Of a stretch of 64,000 nt of DNA, positions 22,910 to 63,521 are shown piece after piece. The notes beneath the pieces were generated by a model, which made no database searches, was not told where the DNA came from, and saw nothing but the letters and a program-made list of their open reading frames with translations. Position numbers and translations under genes: made by a program. The stretch is from an uncultured Candidatus Saccharibacteria bacterium (GTDB taxonomy: Bacteria; Patescibacteriota; Doudnabacteria; UBA920): positions 5,354-69,353 of the forward strand of contig CAZRKK010000002.1 in NCBI GenBank assembly GCA_964600695.1, given 5' to 3'. Position 1 is the first letter of the stretch, and each line of letters begins with the position of its first letter.

Positions 22910-23578
22910 ATGGAAGGTCAGTTGCTTACATTCAATCAAAAACTAACTCAATTGCTGGCAAATAAACCAGTTATTTTGCAAATTCTAAAATTTGCTGCTA
23001 TAGGTGCTCTTAACACAGCTTTAGATTTTATTATTCTCAATTATGTTACTAAAGCTTTTGGTGTGGAATCAGGACTTAATTTAGGCCTTTTAAATGTCAT
23101 TAGTTTTGGAGCAGCAATGATTCAGAGCTACTTATGGAATCGGGCATGGACCTTTGCAGCATCTAATTCTTCTCCTTTATCTAATCTATTTCGGTTGATA
23201 GTTGTTGGTGGTTTGGGGTTTGTTAGCTTTTTATTGGTGGTTATAGGTGGAATTTACAGCGTAGTCGATACCTATTACTTATTCATTTTAATAGTATTTT
23301 TAATTGCAGAAATCTTGATTTGGTATGGTTTTAACCTTAATTTAGGTAGTGATTCCAGTGTTGGTGTCGGTCATCAGTTTGGAATATTCATGATTGTTAG
23401 TTTAATTGGGTTATTGATAAATAGCGGAATTGTAGTAATTGCTTCTATGGCTCTAGCCCCGACATTATCTAATTTAATTAATGTGGATTCTGTAAAGAAT
23501 GTAGCTAAGATCCTGGCAACCATGGTTTCTTTGATCTGGAATTTTGTAGGTTATAAGCTATTTGTGTTCAAGAAATAA
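22910..23578 (+). CDS. GtrA-like polytopic membrane protein (222 aa). Apparent tandem GtrA-type halves.
   Basis: KFAAIGALNTALDFIILNYV...SYLWNRAWTF and a C-terminal NFVGYKLFVFKK pattern, typical of the GtrA family (polysaccharide/lipid-linked glycan translocation). Confidence 0.45.
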   Translation: MEGQLLTFNQKLTQLLANKPVILQILKFAAIGALNTALDFIILNYVTKAFGVESGLNLGLLNVISFGAAMIQSYLWNRAWTFAASNSSPLSNLFRLIVVGGLGFVSFLLVVIGGIYSVVDTYYLFILIVFLIAEILIWYGFNLNLGSDSSVGVGHQFGIFMIVSLIGLLINSGIVVIASMALAPTLSNLINVDSVKNVAKILATMVSLIWNFVGYKLFVFKK

Positions 23579-25360: not shown

Positions 25361-26995
25361 ATGTTTACTAACCCAGAACAAAAAAATAAAAAGATTACCT
25401 TTGCAGTAATAGCGATGGCGGTCGTTGCTTTGGCCGTGGTAACAATATGGCAACCAGGAGAGTTAAGCTTCACGGATAAAACAGATTACAATGCTGAGAC
25501 ACAAAGAGCTCAGGCTGAATTAGCACAATACAAAGCCTTTTTAGCGGAACTTGAACCAAATTACGAAGCTAGTCAACAGTTATTAAAAAAGATTGCTAGT
25601 GCAGATGTAGTTCGTGCAGAAGTTGAGCAGACTTTACAGACAAAGCAGAAAATTGTTATTCCACAAATCGCCAACTCCGAATTAAATATCAGCGATCGTA
25701 AGGATAAAGACTTTGTTTTAAATTATTTGAACACAGTTAGTTCCATGGTGGCTAATTACAAAAATGCAGTTCAACCCGGAACTAATGATTTATTTGTTGA
25801 TAATGCCAACTCTGCTAGTTTGGCTAGGGCTAAGTCGGAAACCGATAGATTTTTAGCAAATTTACGCGGTGTGTCTGTGCCTGCTAGTTTAGTTGAATTA
25901 CACAAAGCTAATATTGTTTCTTTTCAAAAGTACGGACAAATTTTTAATGATGCAGCAAGTTATAGCGAGGGAAGTAACATCGATCCATGGCCAAGTTTCT
26001 ACCAGAGTTACGCTGTGATCGATAATAGATTAGCTGTAGTAAGTAACGAATTAACAAAAGTTGGAAATCAGTTTGCTTTAGCCGAAGAGTTAGAGCGCGC
26101 AACAGGGCCACCATTTATTAAAGTAGCTCAAGCTCAATTAGGTGGTGTGGTAGTAGTTTCTACAGATTTAAAGCGTGATATTTTGGAAGGCATTAAAGAA
26201 GGTTTGGCTAAGTCTTTTGCAAACTTTTCCATGAAGATGCTAGATAAATTAGTCTCTCATATCGAAAAAAGTTTTGCTATTGCTAGTCAACTATATTATT
26301 CCAATGAGCTTGGTAGGTTCTATTCTGTTGAGTATATGAAGAAATTTGTTTCTGATCCACTGGACCAAAGTATTATCCAAAAGTTTTTACCCGAATACTT
26401 TTGTATCGCGCCAAACAAAAAAGATTTGAATAAAATCTTTGTAGCCAAGGCAGCCGAAAATGTGGGTAATGATATAACCATTAATCCGAATGATCCAGAC
26501 TTTGTAGAAAAACTAGCACGGTTGGGAAGTGATGAAAAAAATTATCCACAATGGTGGGAAGGTTACTATCAAGGTTTGGCAGCACAAACAAAGGCAGAGG
26601 CCGAAAGTGCTTCTACTAAAGAAGTTTTGAGCCCTGGAGTAAAAACCGGGAGAGACATAATTACTAACCAAGTTAACAAAACAGTTTCGGCAATTTTCAG
26701 TGTACAAGAAGCGGCAATTTCTGGAGCAATTAACTTAGGAACCAATAACACAGGTAGCCCTGTGAGTCAGTTAGTTTCTGGTGTGGTAGAAGGCTTGGTT
26801 AATAAATTTGTGTTTACCCCAATAAGTGGTGGAGCTTCTAGTGGCGGTGGGATTGGCGTTATCCAAGAAAAAAATGTTTGTCTACAAACTCAAGAGATTA
26901 AGCCTTTGATTCCATTACCTTCATCGGAATACGAAACACCTACAGGAACAACTACAGCTCCAGTTACATCACCACCGTTTGTACCACGTAATTAA
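25361..26995 (+). CDS. Hypothetical N-terminally membrane-anchored extracytoplasmic protein (544 aa) with a Gly/Ser/Thr/Pro-rich C-terminus.
   Basis: TM ITFAVIAMAVVALAVVTIW. No known domain recognised. Confidence 0.5.
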   Translation: MFTNPEQKNKKITFAVIAMAVVALAVVTIWQPGELSFTDKTDYNAETQRAQAELAQYKAFLAELEPNYEASQQLLKKIASADVVRAEVEQTLQTKQKIVIPQIANSELNISDRKDKDFVLNYLNTVSSMVANYKNAVQPGTNDLFVDNANSASLARAKSETDRFLANLRGVSVPASLVELHKANIVSFQKYGQIFNDAASYSEGSNIDPWPSFYQSYAVIDNRLAVVSNELTKVGNQFALAEELERATGPPFIKVAQAQLGGVVVVSTDLKRDILEGIKEGLAKSFANFSMKMLDKLVSHIEKSFAIASQLYYSNELGRFYSVEYMKKFVSDPLDQSIIQKFLPEYFCIAPNKKDLNKIFVAKAAENVGNDITINPNDPDFVEKLARLGSDEKNYPQWWEGYYQGLAAQTKAEAESASTKEVLSPGVKTGRDIITNQVNKTVSAIFSVQEAAISGAINLGTNNTGSPVSQLVSGVVEGLVNKFVFTPISGGASSGGGIGVIQEKNVCLQTQEIKPLIPLPSSEYETPTGTTTAPVTSPPFVPRN

Positions 26996-54169: not shown

Positions 54170-54239
54170 TTAGTATTTCTGTGGATAACTTTTTTTTGCT
54201 CAGAGAGGTATAATATATTTATATTAGTAACTTAAAAAA

Positions 54240-54614
54240 ATGCTGAAAATTGTTTGTGCGGAAGATGACAAAATGATAGCAACTTCTTTGACAGAAGGCT
54301 TTAAAACCGGGGGTTTCGAAGTAACTCCAGCTTATGACGGAGAAGAAGCTTTAGCCAAGATTAAACAAGTTAAGCCTGATGTGGTGCTTTTAGATATTAT
54401 GATGCCAAAGCTTGACGGTATAGGTGTAGTTTGGGAAATGAAGGCAGATTCAGAAATAGCCGACATCCCAGTTGTAATGCTTACTAACTTAAGTGATCCT
54501 GCTACTGTTAGTAAAATTTTAGAAGCCGGTGTTACTGATTATCTTTTGAAGAGTGAACAGACTATAGATCAGATTGTAGAGAAGGTTCATGAAGTAATGA
54601 ACCGCGGGAAATAA
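54240..54614 (+). CDS. Stand-alone response-regulator receiver domain (CheY-like, no output domain).
   Basis: Acidic pocket EDD, phospho-acceptor LLDIMMP, conserved T and K (LKSE). Confidence 0.85.
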   Translation: MLKIVCAEDDKMIATSLTEGFKTGGFEVTPAYDGEEALAKIKQVKPDVVLLDIMMPKLDGIGVVWEMKADSEIADIPVVMLTNLSDPATVSKILEAGVTDYLLKSEQTIDQIVEKVHEVMNRGK

Positions 54615-55795: not shown

Positions 55796-56602
55796 TTAGC
55801 TACGAGCTAAATTAATAGTATCTGTGGCAGCTTTTAGATAGTTTTTACATCTGTTTAAGCTTAGCTCACCGGTTTCTGGATCGTGCAGATTTCCTTCCGC
55901 ATCAAAGCTGAATGGCTTGTATGATCGATTCCATTTAAGGAAGGGAAGTAATTCTGGGAAGTTATTTGCCGACAATCCTCCTGCGAACCCAAGTCCAAAC
56001 AGTGTCGGTAAATGCAGTTCGTCGAAGGCGGAGATGTATTCGTTTGCTTCATCTGTGTTCAACAATTTTCCTTGACCAGCCGATTTATCAAATAGTAAGT
56101 AATTGGTTATCCCAGCATATTGCCGTAGTCTTTTGGCCAATGATGTAGGGGTTTTAAATCTGTTGATTACTTTGCTATTCAACTGAATGACGATCTTTAA
56201 GTCTGGATTTGAATCTCTGATCTCAAATAAGTCTTCTGGATCTGGGAGATTCATATTGAGTTGAAAACCATCCAGTCTAACATTGGCCTCGCGACAAATT
56301 TGAATGTAGTTATAGATTAGAACGTACATATCACTCGCGTGGTTGGCATTGTCAGGGACATGAAGATGGATTAAATTCAAACATCTCTCGTCATCAATAA
56401 AGATTTTCGGTAGGTCTATTGTTTTAGGATGCCGGGGTGGTTTTTTATCTTCACCTCGGCCATCTTTGTCAAAATAATGGCCGCCGTGGGCTAGGCCTCC
56501 TACCATTAGTTTATAACCTGGTGGTAATGATAAATCCATGAGCACGGATTCAACTTGTTCTCGTTTCATAAACCCTGTAATCCCGATATAAGGTGTTTCC
56601 AT
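55796..56602 (-). CDS. Hypothetical protein (268 aa).
   Basis: SD GGAGG upstream on the minus strand. No confident family assignment. Confidence 0.45.
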   Translation of the reverse strand: METPYIGITGFMKREQVESVLMDLSLPPGYKLMVGGLAHGGHYFDKDGRGEDKKPPRHPKTIDLPKIFIDDERCLNLIHLHVPDNANHASDMYVLIYNYIQICREANVRLDGFQLNMNLPDPEDLFEIRDSNPDLKIVIQLNSKVINRFKTPTSLAKRLRQYAGITNYLLFDKSAGQGKLLNTDEANEYISAFDELHLPTLFGLGFAGGLSANNFPELLPFLKWNRSYKPFSFDAEGNLHDPETGELSLNRCKNYLKAATDTINLARS

Positions 56603-56684
56603 AATTCCTCCGTATTAACTTGGTAGAATAACAGCTGTGCAGGGAAGAGTCAAAAAAAAGAGGCACGGCCTCTTTTAATTAGAC

Positions 56685-56912
56685 TTAATTGAAGAATGAT
56701 AAAACTTTGTCCAACATTGTTCTAAGCTTTTTCTTGAGATTATTTCTCAGCTTCATTTCCTCCGGAATATGATAGTACTTACTATTTTTAACTGCTCGAT
56801 CAAACGCAACCTTGAAGGGGATCCCTTCTTCTTTTGCTTTGTCGAAGATAGAGCGGGTATCGGCAGCTTTTCTAAGTGGTTCTTGCGAAAAAATATTCCC
56901 TAGATCTGACAT
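56685..56912 (-). CDS. Hypothetical small protein (~75 aa).
   Basis: The internal Met (MSDLGNIF) is preceded by AAGGAGG at 7-nt spacing. The longer ORF start at 56933 would place this SD inside the coding sequence. Confidence 0.4.
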   Translation of the reverse strand: MSDLGNIFSQEPLRKAADTRSIFDKAKEEGIPFKVAFDRAVKNSKYYHIPEEMKLRNNLKKKLRTMLDKVLSFFN

Positions 56913-57077
56913 TATATCTCCTCCTTTTCTCATTAGTATTATACCAAAACCTACTTAACTTAACAAAAGATAACTAGTATTTTGCTGTACTGTGGATAGC
57001 TGGGAAACATCCTTGCGAAACATTTAAATCTCCTTTAAATACAAGGAGTTTTTTAATTTTTTATGTTTGTGGAACCT

Positions 57078-57106
57078 TTGCTAGATGGGGGAATGTGGGT
57101 TATAAT
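57078..57106 (+). promoter_or_regulatory. Candidate mraZ promoter TTGCTA-17-TATAAT.
   Basis: ttgcta at 57078-57083, 17-nt spacer, tataat at 57101-57106. Confidence 0.45.
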
Positions 57107-57112
57107 GAATTC

Positions 57113-57161
57113 AAGTGGTGAGGAGTGGGGACAAGTGGGGACAAGTGGGTGGATAAGTGGA
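57113..57161 (+). promoter_or_regulatory. MraZ-box-like array: direct GTGGG repeats at exact 10-bp phasing immediately downstream of the -10 element.
   Basis: GTGG at 57115, GTGGG at 57125, 57135, 57145, GTGG at 57157. TGGG also at 57086 and 57096 in the same phase. Confidence 0.5.
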
Positions 57162-57289
57162 TAACTCAAAACCATGAATTGCGAATTTCCTAACAAATAT
57201 TAAAATTTGGCTACTAGAATGTGAGTTGGTGTTTACTGCTAAGGAATCACAAACTAACGTTCTACTAGCTCAAGCTGGTAACGTACATT

Positions 57290-57721
57290 ATGTTCATTGG
57301 AGAATACAACGCATCAATCGATGATAAAGCTCGGGTAATTATCCCGGCTAAGTTTCGATCTGATTTAAAAAATAAAGTTGTAGTTACTCGTGGTTTAGAT
57401 AATTCGTTGGTTCTGTATACATTAGACGAATGGAAGAAGCTTGCAGAAAAATTGGCTAGTCTCCCAATTTCTACTGCCAACACACGTGCTTTTTCTCGTC
57501 TAATGCTTGCAGGAGCAATGGACTGCGAAATCGATAAGCAGGGCCGAATCATCTTGCCGGGGTACTTAAAACAGTATGCCAAGATCAACAAAAAAATGGT
57601 CTTCGCTGGTCTTTATTCCCGCATTGAATTGTGGAGTGAAGAACTCTGGACTAAGTACAAGACACAAACAGAAAAACAAAGTAATCAAATTGCAGAACAG
57701 TTAGGTGACTTAGGGGTATAA
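57290..57721 (+). CDS. mraZ: Transcriptional regulator MraZ.
   Basis: Duplicated MraZ fold (DDKARVIIPAKFR / DKQGRIILPGYL). Confidence 0.85.
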   Translation: MFIGEYNASIDDKARVIIPAKFRSDLKNKVVVTRGLDNSLVLYTLDEWKKLAEKLASLPISTANTRAFSRLMLAGAMDCEIDKQGRIILPGYLKQYAKINKKMVFAGLYSRIELWSEELWTKYKTQTEKQSNQIAEQLGDLGV

Positions 57722-57723
57722 AC

Positions 57724-58698
57724 ATGACACCTAAGAAATACACCCATATCCCAGTTCTTTTAAATGAAGTACTCGAGCTATTAGATCCTAAACAAAATAA
57801 AAATTATGTGGATTCAACTTTGGGCGGCGGCGGTTACACAGAGAAGTTACTTGAAGCTAATGCCCCGAATGGCAAAGTACTATCGATTGACCTTGACCAA
57901 GCGGCGCTAGACAATGCTAAAGAAAGATTTTCTAAAGCAGGGGATAGGCTGACATTGGTTCATGGAAACTTTAGAGATTTTGATAAGTTGATCAATCATC
58001 ACGAATTTAGCGGGATTGCAGGAATAGTAGCCGACATAGGATTATCTAGCTATCAGTTAGATGAATCCGAGCGGGGGATATCTTTCCAAAAGAAAGAATT
58101 ACTCGATATGCGGTTTGATAGTTCTAGTGATCAACCAGATGCTAGATTTTTACTTCACCATCGTTCTGTAGAAGAGTTAACCAAAATATTCCGAGATTAT
58201 AGCGAAGAAAAGCATAGCTACAAGATTGCTCAGAATATAGCAAAAGCCTTGGATAAAGCTCGAAGCGAGCATGGAAATACTAACGAAGTTCTAAAGTATA
58301 CAACTGACTTAGTAGAAATTATTCAAGATTCGCTCCCAAAGCCAGAAAAACATCGATGGACAGATACCGCTCGCAGAATTTTTCAGGCCTTAAGGATAGA
58401 AGTTAATCATGAGCTGGTTAACCTCGAGACATTTCTCCCCAAAGCTTTCGCTTTATTAGAACCAGAGGGTAGGCTGGCAGTAGTAACCTTTCATTCCTTA
58501 GAAGATAGAATAGTAAAAAAGTATTTTAAAGAATTAGCCACTGGATGTATTTGTCCGCCAGAATTTCCAATTTGCAAATGTGGATTAACTCCTCAAGGAA
58601 AAATATTAACCAAAAAAGCAGTTACAGCAACCGAGGAAGAACTAGAGCATAATCCACGGGCTAAATCTGCCAAGCTCCGAGTAGTCCAAAAATTGTAA
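57724..58698 (+). CDS. rsmH: 16S rRNA (cytosine1402-N4)-methyltransferase RsmH (MraW).
   Basis: HIPVLLNEVLELL, DSTLGGGGYT motifs. Confidence 0.9.
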   Translation: MTPKKYTHIPVLLNEVLELLDPKQNKNYVDSTLGGGGYTEKLLEANAPNGKVLSIDLDQAALDNAKERFSKAGDRLTLVHGNFRDFDKLINHHEFSGIAGIVADIGLSSYQLDESERGISFQKKELLDMRFDSSSDQPDARFLLHHRSVEELTKIFRDYSEEKHSYKIAQNIAKALDKARSEHGNTNEVLKYTTDLVEIIQDSLPKPEKHRWTDTARRIFQALRIEVNHELVNLETFLPKAFALLEPEGRLAVVTFHSLEDRIVKKYFKELATGCICPPEFPICKCGLTPQGKILTKKAVTATEEELEHNPRAKSAKLRVVQKL

Positions 58699-58739
58699 AC
58701 AAAAATCTAAAACCTAAATAAAAATTTAAATCAAAACAA

Positions 58740-59159
58740 ATGTTCAAATCCGCAGCCTTATCTTTTATAGCCCCCCGCGTTAGTTCAAAAATAAAAACTC
58801 AAACCACACCTACTGTTAAAGCCGCAACCATTACTTGGGCAGGTACACGTACTAAGTCCAAATCTGTGGATGTTTTGTCTGGTAATGTAGTTCCTTTAAC
58901 CGCGGTCTTGTTAGTTGTTGCTATTGGTGGAATGATGGCTCTGCATTTATTTTGGATCAACACTTATTCATCTAAAGGTGCTCAATTGAAAAAAGTTCAG
59001 ACTTCCATAGCCGAACAGACAGAAATTCAAAAGAAATTACTAGTTAAGCAATCCTTATTAAACTCTACTGTAAGTTTGAGTGATTTAGAAAATACCGGTT
59101 TGGTTCCTGTAACCGAAGCGGAAAATTTAGTTAGTAATACTTTTGCACAGGCCAAATAA
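58740..59159 (+). CDS. ftsL: FtsL-like bitopic cell-division protein (single TM plus coiled coil).
   Basis: Position between rsmH and ftsI. TM LTAVLLVVAIGGMMALHLFWI followed by a helical periplasmic segment. Confidence 0.5.
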   Translation: MFKSAALSFIAPRVSSKIKTQTTPTVKAATITWAGTRTKSKSVDVLSGNVVPLTAVLLVVAIGGMMALHLFWINTYSSKGAQLKKVQTSIAEQTEIQKKLLVKQSLLNSTVSLSDLENTGLVPVTEAENLVSNTFAQAK

Positions 59160-59186
59160 TAGGCCATATCACTAAAATAATTTATC

Positions 59187-60917
59187 ATGGTTGCAGCGCA
59201 AGCTTCATTTGAAAAAGTTTTTAAAAAGAGAATAGTCTTCCTGGCTGTTTTTTTCATTTTCTGCTTGTTACTGATAATTGCGCGATTAGCTTACATGCAA
59301 CTTTTCCGCCAATCATACTACAAGGCGATGGCGAATAATCAGCATTTAGGTGAACAGACCATTTTACCAACTAGGGGTGAGATTTTAATACAAGACAGTT
59401 TCACTGGCCAACCATACACAGTCGCGACATCAGACGAAAAAATTCTAGTGTATGGCAATCCGAGTGAGATTACAGACATGGGAGCGGTTCTCGATAAGCT
59501 TTCGCAGATTTTAAAAATTGATCGAGCTGTATTAGAAGAAAAATTAAAAGATTCTGAAAAACACTACATTGTTCTAAAGAAAGATTTGAGCGAAGAGGAA
59601 GAACAGCAGATTAAAGATGCCAAGCTTGCAGGTGTAAATTTTGATAAAGAAACTTCACGCTTATATCCAGAAAGTACGATGTTGGCCCAATTGTTAGGAT
59701 TCGTAGGTTATAAGGGTGATCAGAAACAAGGTGTTTATGGCTTAGAGTCCGCCTACGATAAAGAATTGGCTGGATCGGCTGGGACTTTGTTGCAAGAAAA
59801 AGATAATAGCGGCAGTTGGATTTTTGGAGGGAAGAGAGATCGGATCCCTGCTAAAGATGGGGATTCACTCCTTTTGACAATTGATAAATCTATTCAGTTA
59901 AAGGTGGAGGCTGTTCTTAAAGAGACTGTCGAAAAACATGGAGCAGATAGTGGAAGTGTGGTAGTTATGGATCCTAAGACAGGCGCGATTCTGGGAATGG
60001 CTACATATCCAACCTTTGATCTAAACACTTTTTCTAAGGTCAGTGACCCAGAGATTTATAACAATCAAGTTGCTTTGGGAGCTTATGAGCCAGGTTCAAT
60101 TTTTAAACCATTAACAATGGCTGCTGGAGTTAATGAAGGGTTGGTTTCGGCTAGTACCACTTTCGTTGATACTGGTGAGGTTAATGTTGATGGCTACACA
60201 ATTAAAAACTCTGACGAAAAAGCCCATGGTACTCAGACAATGAGTCAGGTTTTGGAGGAGTCATTGAACACAGGTACTGTGTTTGTTCAAGATAAAGTTG
60301 GAAACAAAAAGTTTTTAGAATATATTAACAATTTTGGATTTGGAAAGAAGACTGGCTTTGAAACTCCAGAAAGCGCTGGAGACTTAGGAAATTTAAAAGG
60401 TAATATCCAAGTCAACTATGATACCGCTAGTTTTGGACAGGGGATTAGTGTAACTCCACTGCAGTTAGTTCAAGCTTTTTCTAGTTTAGCTAATGGCGGT
60501 GTTATGACTAAGCCTTATGTTGTTAAGCAAATTATCAGAGAGAATGGAAAAGTGGAAGACGTTGCAAAGACCGAAAAGAAACAAGTTATTTCTGCTAAAG
60601 CGGCTAGTGAAGTTGCGGCAATGATGGTCAATGTGGTAGAAAAAGGCCATGGTAAAAAAGCCGCCGTATCTGGGTATTATGTAGCAGGAAAAACTGGAAC
60701 AGCTCAAGTGCCATTGAAGAATGGAAAAGGTTATGACCCAAATAATAATATTGGTTCCTTTATTGGATTTGCTCCTGTAGAAGATCCTAAATTTGTAATG
60801 TTAGTTAGGGTCAATCATCCGCGCAGTGTTAAATTCGCAGAGAGTACAGCCGCACCAGCGTGGGGTTCTATCGGTGCATTTTTACTCCAGTATTTTAAAG
60901 TGCCACCAACTCGTTAA
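59187..60917 (+). CDS. ftsI: Class B penicillin-binding protein (FtsI/PBP2 transpeptidase).
   Basis: SIFKP (SxxK), SLN-like SxN, KTGTA motifs. N-terminal TM anchor. Confidence 0.85.
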   Translation: MVAAQASFEKVFKKRIVFLAVFFIFCLLLIIARLAYMQLFRQSYYKAMANNQHLGEQTILPTRGEILIQDSFTGQPYTVATSDEKILVYGNPSEITDMGAVLDKLSQILKIDRAVLEEKLKDSEKHYIVLKKDLSEEEEQQIKDAKLAGVNFDKETSRLYPESTMLAQLLGFVGYKGDQKQGVYGLESAYDKELAGSAGTLLQEKDNSGSWIFGGKRDRIPAKDGDSLLLTIDKSIQLKVEAVLKETVEKHGADSGSVVVMDPKTGAILGMATYPTFDLNTFSKVSDPEIYNNQVALGAYEPGSIFKPLTMAAGVNEGLVSASTTFVDTGEVNVDGYTIKNSDEKAHGTQTMSQVLEESLNTGTVFVQDKVGNKKFLEYINNFGFGKKTGFETPESAGDLGNLKGNIQVNYDTASFGQGISVTPLQLVQAFSSLANGGVMTKPYVVKQIIRENGKVEDVAKTEKKQVISAKAASEVAAMMVNVVEKGHGKKAAVSGYYVAGKTGTAQVPLKNGKGYDPNNNIGSFIGFAPVEDPKFVMLVRVNHPRSVKFAESTAAPAWGSIGAFLLQYFKVPPTR

Positions 60918-61001
60918 AGTTAAGCATTCTTCCTATTTGACAATATTGCTAGATTCGATACAGTATAGGCGTCAGACTATTCTAAAATAAGGAGGTTGAT
61001 T

Positions 61002-61319
61002 ATGAATAGTACCGAAATTGCTAGGGTCAAAAGGCGTTTTGATAAGAAGAGAGTAAGACATCACAAACCTTTGTTGATGGTAACCAGGGAAGATTTGAGG
61101 TCTGTGAGGATCATTGGTAACGAAGTTATTCATCTAACTGATTTACCCGAAGGTGTTTACGAGGTTAGGGTTATAGCCAATCCAGATCGTTCTAAGCGTC
61201 GCAGAGGAACGAGTTGGGTGGTTACTCTCAGAAATAAACGGCTAATCGGAGCCGCAAAAAGCTACTTTAAGAGTTTAGTTCGAGATGGGGTAATCGAATT
61301 TTATGTCGAGAAGCGGTGA
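61002..61319 (+). CDS. Hypothetical basic protein (~105 aa).
   Basis: SD AAGGAGG 6 nt upstream of ATG 61002 (the ORF track starts at TTG 60996). Arg/Lys-rich. Confidence 0.45.
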   Translation: MNSTEIARVKRRFDKKRVRHHKPLLMVTREDLRSVRIIGNEVIHLTDLPEGVYEVRVIANPDRSKRRRGTSWVVTLRNKRLIGAAKSYFKSLVRDGVIEFYVEKR

Positions 61320-61394
61320 GCATGAAGGAATTATAAACTTCATGCTTTTTCTATTTCCACAAGTTGAGTTTTTAAGCTAAAATGGAGTAAAGAG

Positions 61395-63521
61395 ATGAAC
61401 TTCAAAAATATTTTTTACTGGGTCAGAAAATCAACTTTGCTGTTAGTTGTAACAGTGATTTTTGGATTTGGTTCGGTGTTCTTAGTTATCGGCTTAGCCT
61501 CTGGTGCCTACCTGATTGCTGTGAATTCATCTTTGCCAAACTATCAAGAAATCGAAAATCGTAACGTACCAGAATCAAGTAAATTATATTCACGTGACGG
61601 AACTTTATTGTATGAGTTTTACGGTGAGTACAAACGTTCTAAAGTTTCTTTGGATAAAATTTCCCCAACACTAAAAAATGCTACCATCGCTATAGAAGAT
61701 AAAGATTTTTACAATCATGGAGCTATTTCTTTACCATCGATTGCCAGAGCCATGCTTGCGAACTCTAAGTCCGGTGCTGTTTCTCAAGGGGGAAGCACTA
61801 TCACTCAACAGTTTGCTAAGAATGCTTTATTAGATAGGCAAAAACTATACAGTCGCAAAGTCCGCGAAGTTTTACTTGCCTATAAAATTGAATCACATTT
61901 TAGTAAAGATGCTATTTTAGAATTATATTTAAATGAAATTCCTTACGGGCGTAATAGCTATGGCGCCGAAGCTGCAAGTAAAACTTATTTTGGAAAATCT
62001 GCCACCGAGTTAAGCTTAGCCGAAAGTGCTTACTTAGCTGCATTACCTCAAGCTCCAAGTTTCTATAGTCCAACCGGTGCGAACACAGAAGCATTGGATA
62101 ATCGTAAGGATTTGGTTTTACAAAAAATGTTTGAGCAGGGCTATATCTCCGAACAAGATATGTATCAAGCTAAAACAGCTCAAGTGGCTTTCTTGCCAGC
62201 AACTAATAAAATGATTGCCCCATATTATGTGTCTTGGGTTCGTAACTATTTAGTAGATAAGTATGGAACAGAATTCTTAAAAGAAGGTGGTCTAAAAGTA
62301 TATAGTTCCTTAGATTTAAATTTACAAAAATTAGCCGAACAAGTTGTTAAAGAAGGAGCAGAAATCAACAAAACTAAATATCGAGCTTACAATGCTGCTA
62401 TCGTTGCCGTTGATCCTGTCACTAACAAGGTCGTGGCTATGGCCGGTGGAAAAGATTATTTTGGTGAAGCCGAACCTAGTGGTTGTAAAGTAGGGAAGAA
62501 TTGTAAATTTGAACCTAATGTTAACGTTGCATCGAGTATGCGTCAGCCGGGGAGTAGTTTTAAGCCTTACGCTTATTTAACTGCTTTCAAACCAGAATTT
62601 GGTTACACACCACTATCAAAAGTTTTGGATGTACCAACATCTTTTGGAACAGCTGGTGGACGACCATATATTCCACGAAACTATGATGGTTCTTCTCATG
62701 GTTTGATTACAATTCGAAAAGCATTGGCTGGGAGTTTGAATGTTCCTGCTGTTCGTACGTTGGCTGCTGTGGGAGTAGAAAATGTTGTGGCTACCGCAAA
62801 AAGTCTAGGCATCACATCACCCTTAAAGAATTGTGGATTGTCTTTGGTTTTGGGTGGATGCGAGGTTCAACTAGTTGATCATGTCACAGCATTCTCTGTG
62901 TTAGCTAATGGTGGAAAAGGGGATCTTAGTAGTCCATTTATCAGAATCGAAGACAAACACGGCAAAACTTTAGAGTCATCAAGTGGTAATCCAGAGCAGA
63001 TTGTAAATCCAGAAGCAGTATATGAATTAATAAGTATTATGACGGATGATCTATCACGTCAATATGTTTTTGGAAAGAAAAACCCTTTAACTTTACCAGA
63101 TCGAGTTGTTGCGGCTAAGACTGGAACTACTCAAAATTGGAAAGATGGATGGACATTAGGTTTTACTCCTCAATTAGCAGTTGGTGTTTGGACTGGTAAC
63201 AACGATAGTTCCTTAATGCGCGCTGGGGCTGATGGGGTATTTACTGCAGCACCTATTTGGCATAAATTTATGGAAGCTGCTATGGCTGGTCAGCCTGTGA
63301 AGGATTTTGAAGTTCCTGCTGGAGTTATTCAAGTAGCGTATGATATTTATTCTAATAAACCAGTTTCGAAGGATTCAAAAAATGTACGCATGGAGCCAGT
63401 GCCTTGGTACGCTTTACCAAAGGATATTCAAATTTCTGCTGCTCCAAAGAATTTACAGAAATCTTTAATAGGCCCAATTGGTCAAGTTGCAGGTGCAGTT
63501 ACTACCGAGCCTTCTCAGTAA
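61395..63521 (+). CDS. Class A penicillin-binding protein (bifunctional glycosyltransferase GT51 plus transpeptidase, PBP1A-type).
   Basis: GT51 motifs EDKDFYNHGAIS and GGSTITQQ. TP motifs SSFKP, SxN, KTGT. N-terminal TM. Confidence 0.85.
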   Translation: MNFKNIFYWVRKSTLLLVVTVIFGFGSVFLVIGLASGAYLIAVNSSLPNYQEIENRNVPESSKLYSRDGTLLYEFYGEYKRSKVSLDKISPTLKNATIAIEDKDFYNHGAISLPSIARAMLANSKSGAVSQGGSTITQQFAKNALLDRQKLYSRKVREVLLAYKIESHFSKDAILELYLNEIPYGRNSYGAEAASKTYFGKSATELSLAESAYLAALPQAPSFYSPTGANTEALDNRKDLVLQKMFEQGYISEQDMYQAKTAQVAFLPATNKMIAPYYVSWVRNYLVDKYGTEFLKEGGLKVYSSLDLNLQKLAEQVVKEGAEINKTKYRAYNAAIVAVDPVTNKVVAMAGGKDYFGEAEPSGCKVGKNCKFEPNVNVASSMRQPGSSFKPYAYLTAFKPEFGYTPLSKVLDVPTSFGTAGGRPYIPRNYDGSSHGLITIRKALAGSLNVPAVRTLAAVGVENVVATAKSLGITSPLKNCGLSLVLGGCEVQLVDHVTAFSVLANGGKGDLSSPFIRIEDKHGKTLESSSGNPEQIVNPEAVYELISIMTDDLSRQYVFGKKNPLTLPDRVVAAKTGTTQNWKDGWTLGFTPQLAVGVWTGNNDSSLMRAGADGVFTAAPIWHKFMEAAMAGQPVKDFEVPAGVIQVAYDIYSNKPVSKDSKNVRMEPVPWYALPKDIQISAAPKNLQKSLIGPIGQVAGAVTTEPSQ

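Follow-up and report, generated by a model that had tools for sequence, protein, structure and literature searches.

The mraZ locus and its predicted promoter

The window, by which we mean the whole 64-kb stretch of DNA analysed here, carries a division and cell-wall gene cluster headed by mraZ. The intergenic region upstream of mraZ measures 356 bp (56934-57289) and separates it from a small divergent ORF. The genes from 57724 to 63521 share the orientation of mraZ and are separated by short gaps, and for this reason we infer that they form a single transcription unit with it. The genes of this cluster are as follows.

57290-57721, + strand: mraZ, opening gene of the operon, its 143-aa product the presumed DNA binder (Pfam PF02381, 7e-38, with two MraZ domains)
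57724-58698, + strand: rsmH (ORF list and Pfam)
58740-59159, + strand: 139-aa ORF, family unknown, at the usual position of ftsL (ORF list)
59187-60917, + strand: FtsI-type PBP (Pfam)
60996-61319, + strand: 107-aa ORF (ORF list)
61395-63521, + strand: class A PBP (Pfam)

The window MraZ aligns without gaps over residues 1-103 with MraZ of M. pneumoniae (1n0e) and of M. genitalium (9qlr, 9qlg, 9sx6), and residue numbering is therefore common to the window protein and the Mycoplasma proteins over this range. In M. genitalium MraZ, residues K13, R15 and R86 contact bases of the TGT/G core, and the substitutions K13A, R15A and R86A each abolish binding; D11 and D82 keep the arginines positioned. 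The window protein has the same five residues (D11, K13, R15, D82 and R86), which are invariant among 27 relatives. Both DXXXR motifs are present, as are K13, R15 and R86, the residues that contact bases in M. genitalium. Relatives of this protein number in the thousands in metagenomes; the named ones belong to Patescibacteria (CPR), and the nearest are labelled Doudnabacteria.

Many MAG records titled 'uncultured Gammaproteobacteria' or 'Candidatus Saccharibacteria' (L017, L022, L024-L027, L029, L032, L037 and others) encode MraZ proteins that are 62-87% identical to that of the window. The promoter architecture at these loci is as in the window, and their titles are probably taxonomic mislabels.

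A predicted promoter lies 184 bp upstream of the mraZ operon. Its two hexamers, TTGCTA and TATAAT, are separated by 17 nt and match 10 of 12 positions in a promoter consensus scan. Short G-rich repeats overlap it and continue downstream, and the region from 57078 to 57168 holds the following features.

57078-57083, + strand: -35 hexamer TTGCTA of the predicted mraZ promoter (consensus scan)
57085-57089, + strand: candidate MraZ box ATGGG, the T of its TGG at about -27, within the -35/-10 spacer
57095-57099, + strand: candidate MraZ box GTGGG, at about -17, in the spacer and abutting the -10 hexamer
57101-57106, + strand: -10 hexamer TATAAT (consensus scan), its final base occupying the phased slot 57106
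57115-57119, + strand: candidate MraZ box GTGGT, at about +3, at or overlapping the predicted transcription start
57125-57129, + strand: candidate MraZ box GTGGG, at about +13
57135-57139, + strand: candidate MraZ box GTGGG, at about +23
57145-57149, + strand: candidate MraZ box GTGGG, at about +33, the final box in strict 10-bp phase
57149-57165, + strand: GTGGATAAGTGGATAAC, composed of two GTGGATAA units that lie 4 and 12 bp past the last phased box

The initial annotation had described this promoter together with a GTGG/GTGGG array downstream of it, and our reading agrees base for base: GTGG (57115-57118), six nucleotides, GTGGG (57125-57129), gacaa, GTGGG (57135-57139), gacaa, GTGGG (57145-57149), seven nucleotides and GTGG (57157-57160). 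The TGG(G) cores start at 57086, 57096, 57116, 57126, 57136 and 57146, in exact 10-bp register. Five of them are GTGG cores and the sixth belongs to ATGGG at 57085; all lie on the + strand, as a run of four (57116-57146) and a pair (57086/57096). The slot skipped between the pair and the run, 57106, reads TGA and falls on the last T of the -10 hexamer. The two motifs at 57150 and 57158 are +4 and +12 from 57146, out of register, and form GTGGATAAGTGGATAAC. The count of up to seven phased repeats given by the initial annotation thus holds for six cores, and the seventh, at 57158, sits 12 bp from 57146 as part of the terminal element. The - strand of the mraZ intergenic region contains neither GTGG nor TGGG. 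Transcription would start at about 57113, a prediction made solely from the position of the -10 hexamer, which ends some 7 nt before it. With this start, the box cores lie at about -27, -17, (-7), +4, +14, +24 and +34.

Such an array is not expected by chance. On both strands of the 64 kb, six or more of seven TGG slots in 10-bp phase are filled once, at 57086, against a binomial expectation of 8e-5; in 20,000 shuffles of the mraZ intergenic region this occupancy was never reached. The pattern GTGGG-N5-GTGGG-N5-GTGGG has its sole match in the window at the mraZ array (shuffle expectation 0.02), as has GTGG-N6-GTGG-N6-GTGG (expectation 0.07), and the array is the densest GTGG cluster of the window. 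A search for additional arrays, which the initial annotation had proposed as a way to define a regulon, returned in the 64-kb window no second triple GTGG repeat and one other GTGG-N6-GTGG pair, inside an ORF at 23237. No MraZ regulon is visible within these 64 kb.

Conservation of the array across Patescibacteria

We collected 80 species-representative mraZ loci (L001-L080), 75 of which have enough upstream DNA, and searched them for chains of TGG at strict 10-bp spacing with at least three members, no more than 350 bp upstream of mraZ. The initial annotation had allowed that the array might be missing upstream of mraZ in relatives. It is not: a chain precedes mraZ in 56 of the 75 Patescibacteria species, most often with four boxes (39 loci), and elsewhere in about 3 kb of the same loci, on both strands, chains occur in 3 of 75. 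When the arrays are aligned on their last box, the three preceding slots are filled in 56, 56 and 41 of the 56 loci. The consensus of the box unit is nAAGTGGnnnnA (AAGTGG with a 10-bp period), and position -2 of TGG is A in 85% of boxes and T in 7%.

The position of the boxes relative to the promoter is also shared. At 69 of 75 loci, a -10-like hexamer is preceded by a TGG box at a distance of 1-3 nt. This abutment or overlap fits repression by occlusion. Two architectures recur. In the first, found at 48 of 75 loci, the boxes straddle the -10 element (TGGnnTAnAATGG), and the second TGG begins on the last base of the hexamer. In the second, seen at 19 of 75 loci, among them 12 of the 15 nearest relatives, two spacer boxes are followed by the -10 element and four downstream boxes; this is the architecture of the window. 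In 436 kb of control sequence the straddling pattern occurred 7 times and the spacer-pair pattern 0 times. Slot 57106, which is degenerate in the window, is the exact box position of the straddling architecture. The initial annotation had called the array unusually clean and extended; it does exceed the three or four boxes of model bacteria, but six phased boxes are typical of this clade.

A footprint alignment of close relatives comprised the intergenic regions of contigs with identical or 93%-identical MraZ and those of the next two species. In this alignment, 57078-57168 is a nearly invariant island and the DNA on either side is unalignable. Every GTGG core is invariant, as are ATGGG at 57085, the TTG of the -35 hexamer, TATA.T of the -10 hexamer, TTCAAGTGG at box 57115 and the terminal GTGGATAAGTGGA.AACTC. 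Substitutions within the island lie in the spacers, for example from GTGGTGAGGA to GTGGAGATGA or GTGGAATGAA, and from GGGGACAA to GGGGAAAA or GGGGATAA. In more distant relatives the -35 hexamer reads TTGAAA or TTGACC.

The mraZ leader (57166-57289) extends for about 125 nt past the last box and is unconserved, and its length is very variable both among the close relatives and among the 75 loci. No Shine-Dalgarno-like sequence precedes the mraZ start codon. The SD-like GAGGAG at 57120-57125 was rejected as a translation signal, as relatives read GATGAG, ATGAAG or AAGAAG at this place. A second promoter-like site within the leader, TTGCGA-16-TAAAAT (57179-57206), is present in near-identical contigs only; the next relatives have lost it, and their leader is much shorter. 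A scan of 56500-57400 against Rfam at permissive E-values found no known RNA element in the leader, returning two chance-level matches (E about 0.8) far below gathering scores.

Upstream of the island, a terminator-like hairpin on the + strand (57030-57063; CTCCTT-n7-AAGGAG followed by a T-run) lies about 15-30 bp from the mraZ -35 hexamer. It is weak (-6.4 kcal/mol, z = -1.6) and persists with altered stem bases in the relatives of the footprint alignment. In most other species, where the preceding gene runs in the same direction as mraZ, a comparable hairpin simply terminates that gene; in the window the upstream gene is divergent. The hairpin may serve as an insulator here, or its T-run as an UP element.

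The divergent ORF itself (56685-56966, - strand) has no Pfam match, and gene callers are split between a product of 75 and one of 82 aa. Its start codon is probably the ATG at 56912 (75 aa), which has GGAGGAG 6 nt upstream, and not the one at 56933 (82 aa). A strong predicted minus-strand promoter, TTGTTA-17-TATAAT with a TG element, runs from 56966 to 56938; its transcripts would begin near 56931, past the start codon of the longer product.

Characterised MraZ operators and a proposed mode of action

Operators of this kind have been published, and in most bacteria they comprise three GTG(G/T) boxes with 6-nt spacers. We read the E. coli K-12 Pmra sequence directly: TTGACA and a -10-like element are followed by GTGGGaaattGTGGGgcaaaGTGGG, 24 bp before the mraZ start codon. 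It shares with the window the GTGGG-N5 unit, with the same core and period (GTGGGaaattGTGGGgcaaaGTGGG compared with GTGGGgacaaGTGGGgacaaGTGGG in the window). Its three boxes all lie downstream of the -10 element, whereas the window has four downstream, two in the spacer and the offset GTGGATAA element. In B. subtilis, three GTGG[A/T]G boxes with 4-nt spacers are needed for repression, which also depends on MraZ R15 and R86. The B. subtilis and window arrays are alike in their GTGG core, in their 10-bp period at the mra promoter and in that the triple repeat is unique, in the genome there and in the 64-kb window here. They differ in that B. subtilis has three boxes, and spacer boxes or a terminal GTGGATAA element are not described for it; the window has both.

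The M. genitalium operator consists of four AAAGTGT-N3 boxes, the first of which contains the mapped transcription start. MraZ binds it cooperatively, and each box that is mutated lowers affinity and repression by a further step. Like the window array, it has a 10-bp period, an A-rich 5' flank (AAGTGG in the window) and a start inside or at the first downstream box, the window's start being the predicted one. Unlike the window, where the core is GTGG and six boxes are phased, it has four boxes, and the core of most Mycoplasma boxes is GTGT. Cryo-EM structures of the M. genitalium complex (2026; 9qlr, 9qlg, 9sx6) show that the ring opens and places four subunits on four boxes; the DNA has a linear geometry that is incompatible with the curvature of a closed ring. 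Octamers are reported to predominate in Mycoplasma MraZ, and a dodecamer has been proposed for E. coli MraZ alone.

The mraZ upstream region of the window has all the sequence-level features that define an MraZ operator. We conclude, at a probability of roughly 85%, that 57078-57168 is the promoter and operator of an mraZ-led division and cell-wall operon of Patescibacteria, bound by MraZ and negatively autoregulated. The phased GTGG repeats are almost certainly the sites through which MraZ controls its own operon. The initial annotation had likewise proposed MraZ boxes overlapping the mraZ promoter as a candidate for dcw autoregulation, and gene context, the DNA-reading residues of the protein, the match to published operators and conservation across the phylum all speak for this proposal.

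We infer from the sequence how MraZ would bind here, in an oligomer of what size and with which sign relative to the predicted start, and what the terminal element would contribute. MraZ is a two-domain protein of the SpoVT/AbrB type that forms oligomers. At each GTGG core, one subunit would fit a basic 'cradle' of K13, R15 and R86, which D11 and D82 keep in position, into a single major groove. The 10-bp recurrence of the cores would let neighbouring subunits of an oligomer bind cooperatively on the same face of the DNA. The oligomer would cover the spacer, the -10 element and the initial transcribed region, the four downstream boxes spanning about +3 to +37. With two boxes in the spacer and four from the predicted start, occupancy should exclude RNA polymerase or block its escape. 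MraZ would in this way repress its own gene together with rsmH and the PBP genes further along, a negative autoregulation of the kind that experiments have demonstrated in three other phyla. The GTGGATAA element 12 bp past the last phased box may extend the MraZ complex or recruit a second protein, most plausibly DnaA.

The suggestion in the initial annotation that the DNA wraps around a dodecameric MraZ ring is at odds with the M. genitalium cryo-EM structures, in which the ring is opened and the DNA essentially straight. The six to seven slots of the window exceed the four subunit-box contacts seen in those structures. To fill six phased boxes, either more subunits than have so far been observed on DNA or two assemblies would have to engage. 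The phylum offers a natural series in this respect, with four boxes straddling the -10 element at some loci and two spacer plus four downstream boxes at others, which could be used to test how many subunits the opened MraZ ring engages.

MraZ operators are well described from E. coli, B. subtilis and Mycoplasma, with atomic-resolution structures available since 2026; one at Patescibacteria mraZ genes is therefore expected. The kind is thus already known; its Patescibacteria member is new, and the number of boxes in the window is normal for the clade. A literature search on MraZ boxes in Patescibacteria found nothing relevant. Alone, a Patescibacteria MraZ operator changes nothing. The association with DnaA boxes, to which we turn below, is the one lead worth following up.

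DnaA-like boxes and other readings of the repeats

The terminal element (57149-57165) breaks the 10-bp rule and resembles a DnaA box, and part of the footprint may for this reason belong to another protein. It is invariant save for one base in close relatives. Its sequence would suit a DnaA site as well as an MraZ anchor box set off from the phased register. In most bacteria the high-affinity DnaA box is TTATCCACA (TTWTNCACA), which may not be the form used at the origins of these genomes. The two GTGGATAA units, read as GGTGGATAA (57148) and AGTGGATAA (57156), each match the DnaA consensus TGTGGATAA at 8 of 9 positions. An upstream copy, TGTGGATAG (56991-56999), also matches at 8 of 9, and all three are in forward orientation. 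These are the only candidates in the window's mraZ intergenic region, which contains no perfect DnaA 9-mer. The copy at 56991 is conserved only in near-identical contigs and is probably not a functional site.

Related elements recur at other mraZ promoters. A forward GTGGA(T/C)AA element stands 12 bp past the last phased box in the window and at nine other loci. In other lineages it lies 20-22 or 52-53 bp after the last box (roughly 10n+2), and in further lineages it precedes the first box by about 40 bp, immediately ahead of the -35 hexamer. In most such loci the element is TGTGGATAA, the reverse complement of the DnaA consensus TTATCCACA. Of 74 species, 48 have a perfect TTATCCACA 9-mer, in either orientation, in the 350 bp before mraZ. 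Perfect DnaA boxes number 2.1 per kb in this interval; outside it, the loci contain 0.02 per kb overall and 0.2 per kb when only non-ORF DNA is counted. Relative to other non-ORF DNA, the enrichment upstream of mraZ in these 74 species is about 10-fold (Fisher p = 7e-10).

These data raise the possibility of a shared operator, in which the phased AAGTGG boxes bind MraZ, and the GTGGATAA units at 57149-57165, like the TGTGGATAA/TTATCCACA elements of relatives, are DnaA boxes. Levels of DnaA-ATP would then also gate dcw transcription. This arrangement is compatible with the MraZ operator, and we regard it as a possible but less favoured account of the terminal element. Beyond the enrichment of the perfect 9-mer upstream of mraZ in relatives (2.1 against 0.2 per kb of non-ORF DNA), several observations speak for it. 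The 9-mers occur in both orientations and at varied sites: about 40 bp before the first box, 12-22 bp after the last, and reversed near the upstream terminator. Two bases before TGG the elements have T (TGTGG), unlike the phased boxes, which have A there (AAGTGG). The mraZ site is no replication origin, as the whole window shows positive GC skew. However, the three candidates of the window are all imperfect, at 8 of 9 positions, and the 9-mers at 57148 and 57156 overlap by one base, which would be expected to hinder binding of two DnaA molecules at once. Both terminal units also fit the MraZ consensus AAGTGG or GTGG, and a fixed 10n+2 offset would equally suit a single MraZ assembly. Our literature search found no paper that ties DnaA boxes to mraZ. 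In short, the window resembles known DnaA sites in GGTGGATAA, AGTGGATAA and TGTGGATAG and in the perfect copies enriched at the mraZ promoters of relatives; it differs in that its own copies are imperfect, overlap the MraZ-type consensus and lie away from any origin.

A replication origin at the DnaA-like boxes was considered and rejected, since GC skew keeps its positive sign throughout the window. The 64 kb contain no dnaA gene and no oriC region.

A more far-reaching version of this idea, which we offer with still greater reserve, is that the Patescibacteria dcw promoter is a composite switch. Its four to six phased MraZ boxes would be paired with a consensus DnaA box at a set distance, either 10n+2 bp after the last box or about 40 bp before the first, and transcription of the operon would be under the joint control of the replication initiator and the division regulator. 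If the recurrent DnaA 9-mer is real, it would provide a direct link from replication initiation to division-gene transcription in organisms that are not yet genetically tractable. The composite switch, if true, would be a minimal circuit for coupling replication and division in ultra-small bacteria with few regulators.

Sequences of the DnaA type are also found away from the mraZ array. The non-ORF DNA of the window has only two perfect TGTGGATAA boxes, at 208-217 and 54180-54189, and both read TGTGGATAAC followed by a T-run. The first lies just upstream of a -10-like TATACT at 244, before the ORF at 280-564, and the second just upstream of a TATAAT at 54209, before a response-regulator gene (54240-54614). 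In this genome the TGTGGATAA motif may serve more generally as a regulatory site. A span of under 180 bp at 26373-26550 contains three DnaA-box-like 9-mers (TTATCCAAA, TGTGGGTAA and a perfect TTATCCACA), and the second-densest GTGG cluster of the window (26781-26880) lies about 240 bp past them. Both fall within a 544-aa ORF (25361-26995) without a Pfam match. At two of the sampled loci, L052 and L064, the box array is absent from the 350 bp next to mraZ; a perfect DnaA-type box lies about 300-590 bp upstream, accompanied in L064 by a short box chain. The distance of these elements suggests a very long leader or an inserted gene.

The reading of the array as an MraZ operator leaves the sign of regulation to be considered. 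MraZ might bind the array and activate the operon instead of repressing it, and the sign is not certain because overproduction of MraZ is reported to activate in M. gallisepticum. Boxes that lie inside the -35/-10 spacer and across the predicted start are nevertheless in the position of a repressor, and reporters have shown repression for E. coli, B. subtilis and M. genitalium. We consider activation improbable.

Less probable still is that the G-rich repeats act mainly as a G-quadruplex, in the non-template DNA or the leader RNA, and not primarily as protein boxes. There is a precedent in S. aureus, where a G-quadruplex has been demonstrated in vitro for the G-rich region downstream of PmraZ. 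The window likewise has G-rich repeats of MraZ type downstream of its mraZ promoter, and the array has the top G4Hunter score of the 64 kb (1.72 at 57127). It differs in having three tracts of at least three G with short loops and no four-tract motif even with loops of up to 12 nt; the G-quadruplex patterns that the array does contain are of the GG-tract (two-tetrad) type only. Relatives rarely have the motif, its canonical form occurring upstream of mraZ in 2 of 74 and a G4Hunter score of at least 1.5 in 12 of 74. The conserved feature is AAGTGG repeated every 10 bp, and in many boxes the base after TGG is T or A (TGGT, TGGA). With the AAG-preceded core and period retained and the base after TGG variable, selection acts on box and phase and not on G-tract length. 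With the canonical motif lacking in 72 of 74 relatives, the G-quadruplex was rejected as a conserved feature.

That the repeats are a functionless product of chance or replication slippage has next to no likelihood: the two central units are identical 10-mers (GTGGGGACAA), as recent slippage would give, but the chance expectation is about 1e-4 and the cores are kept across the phylum while the spacers vary, comparative sequence data by which this reading is ruled out.
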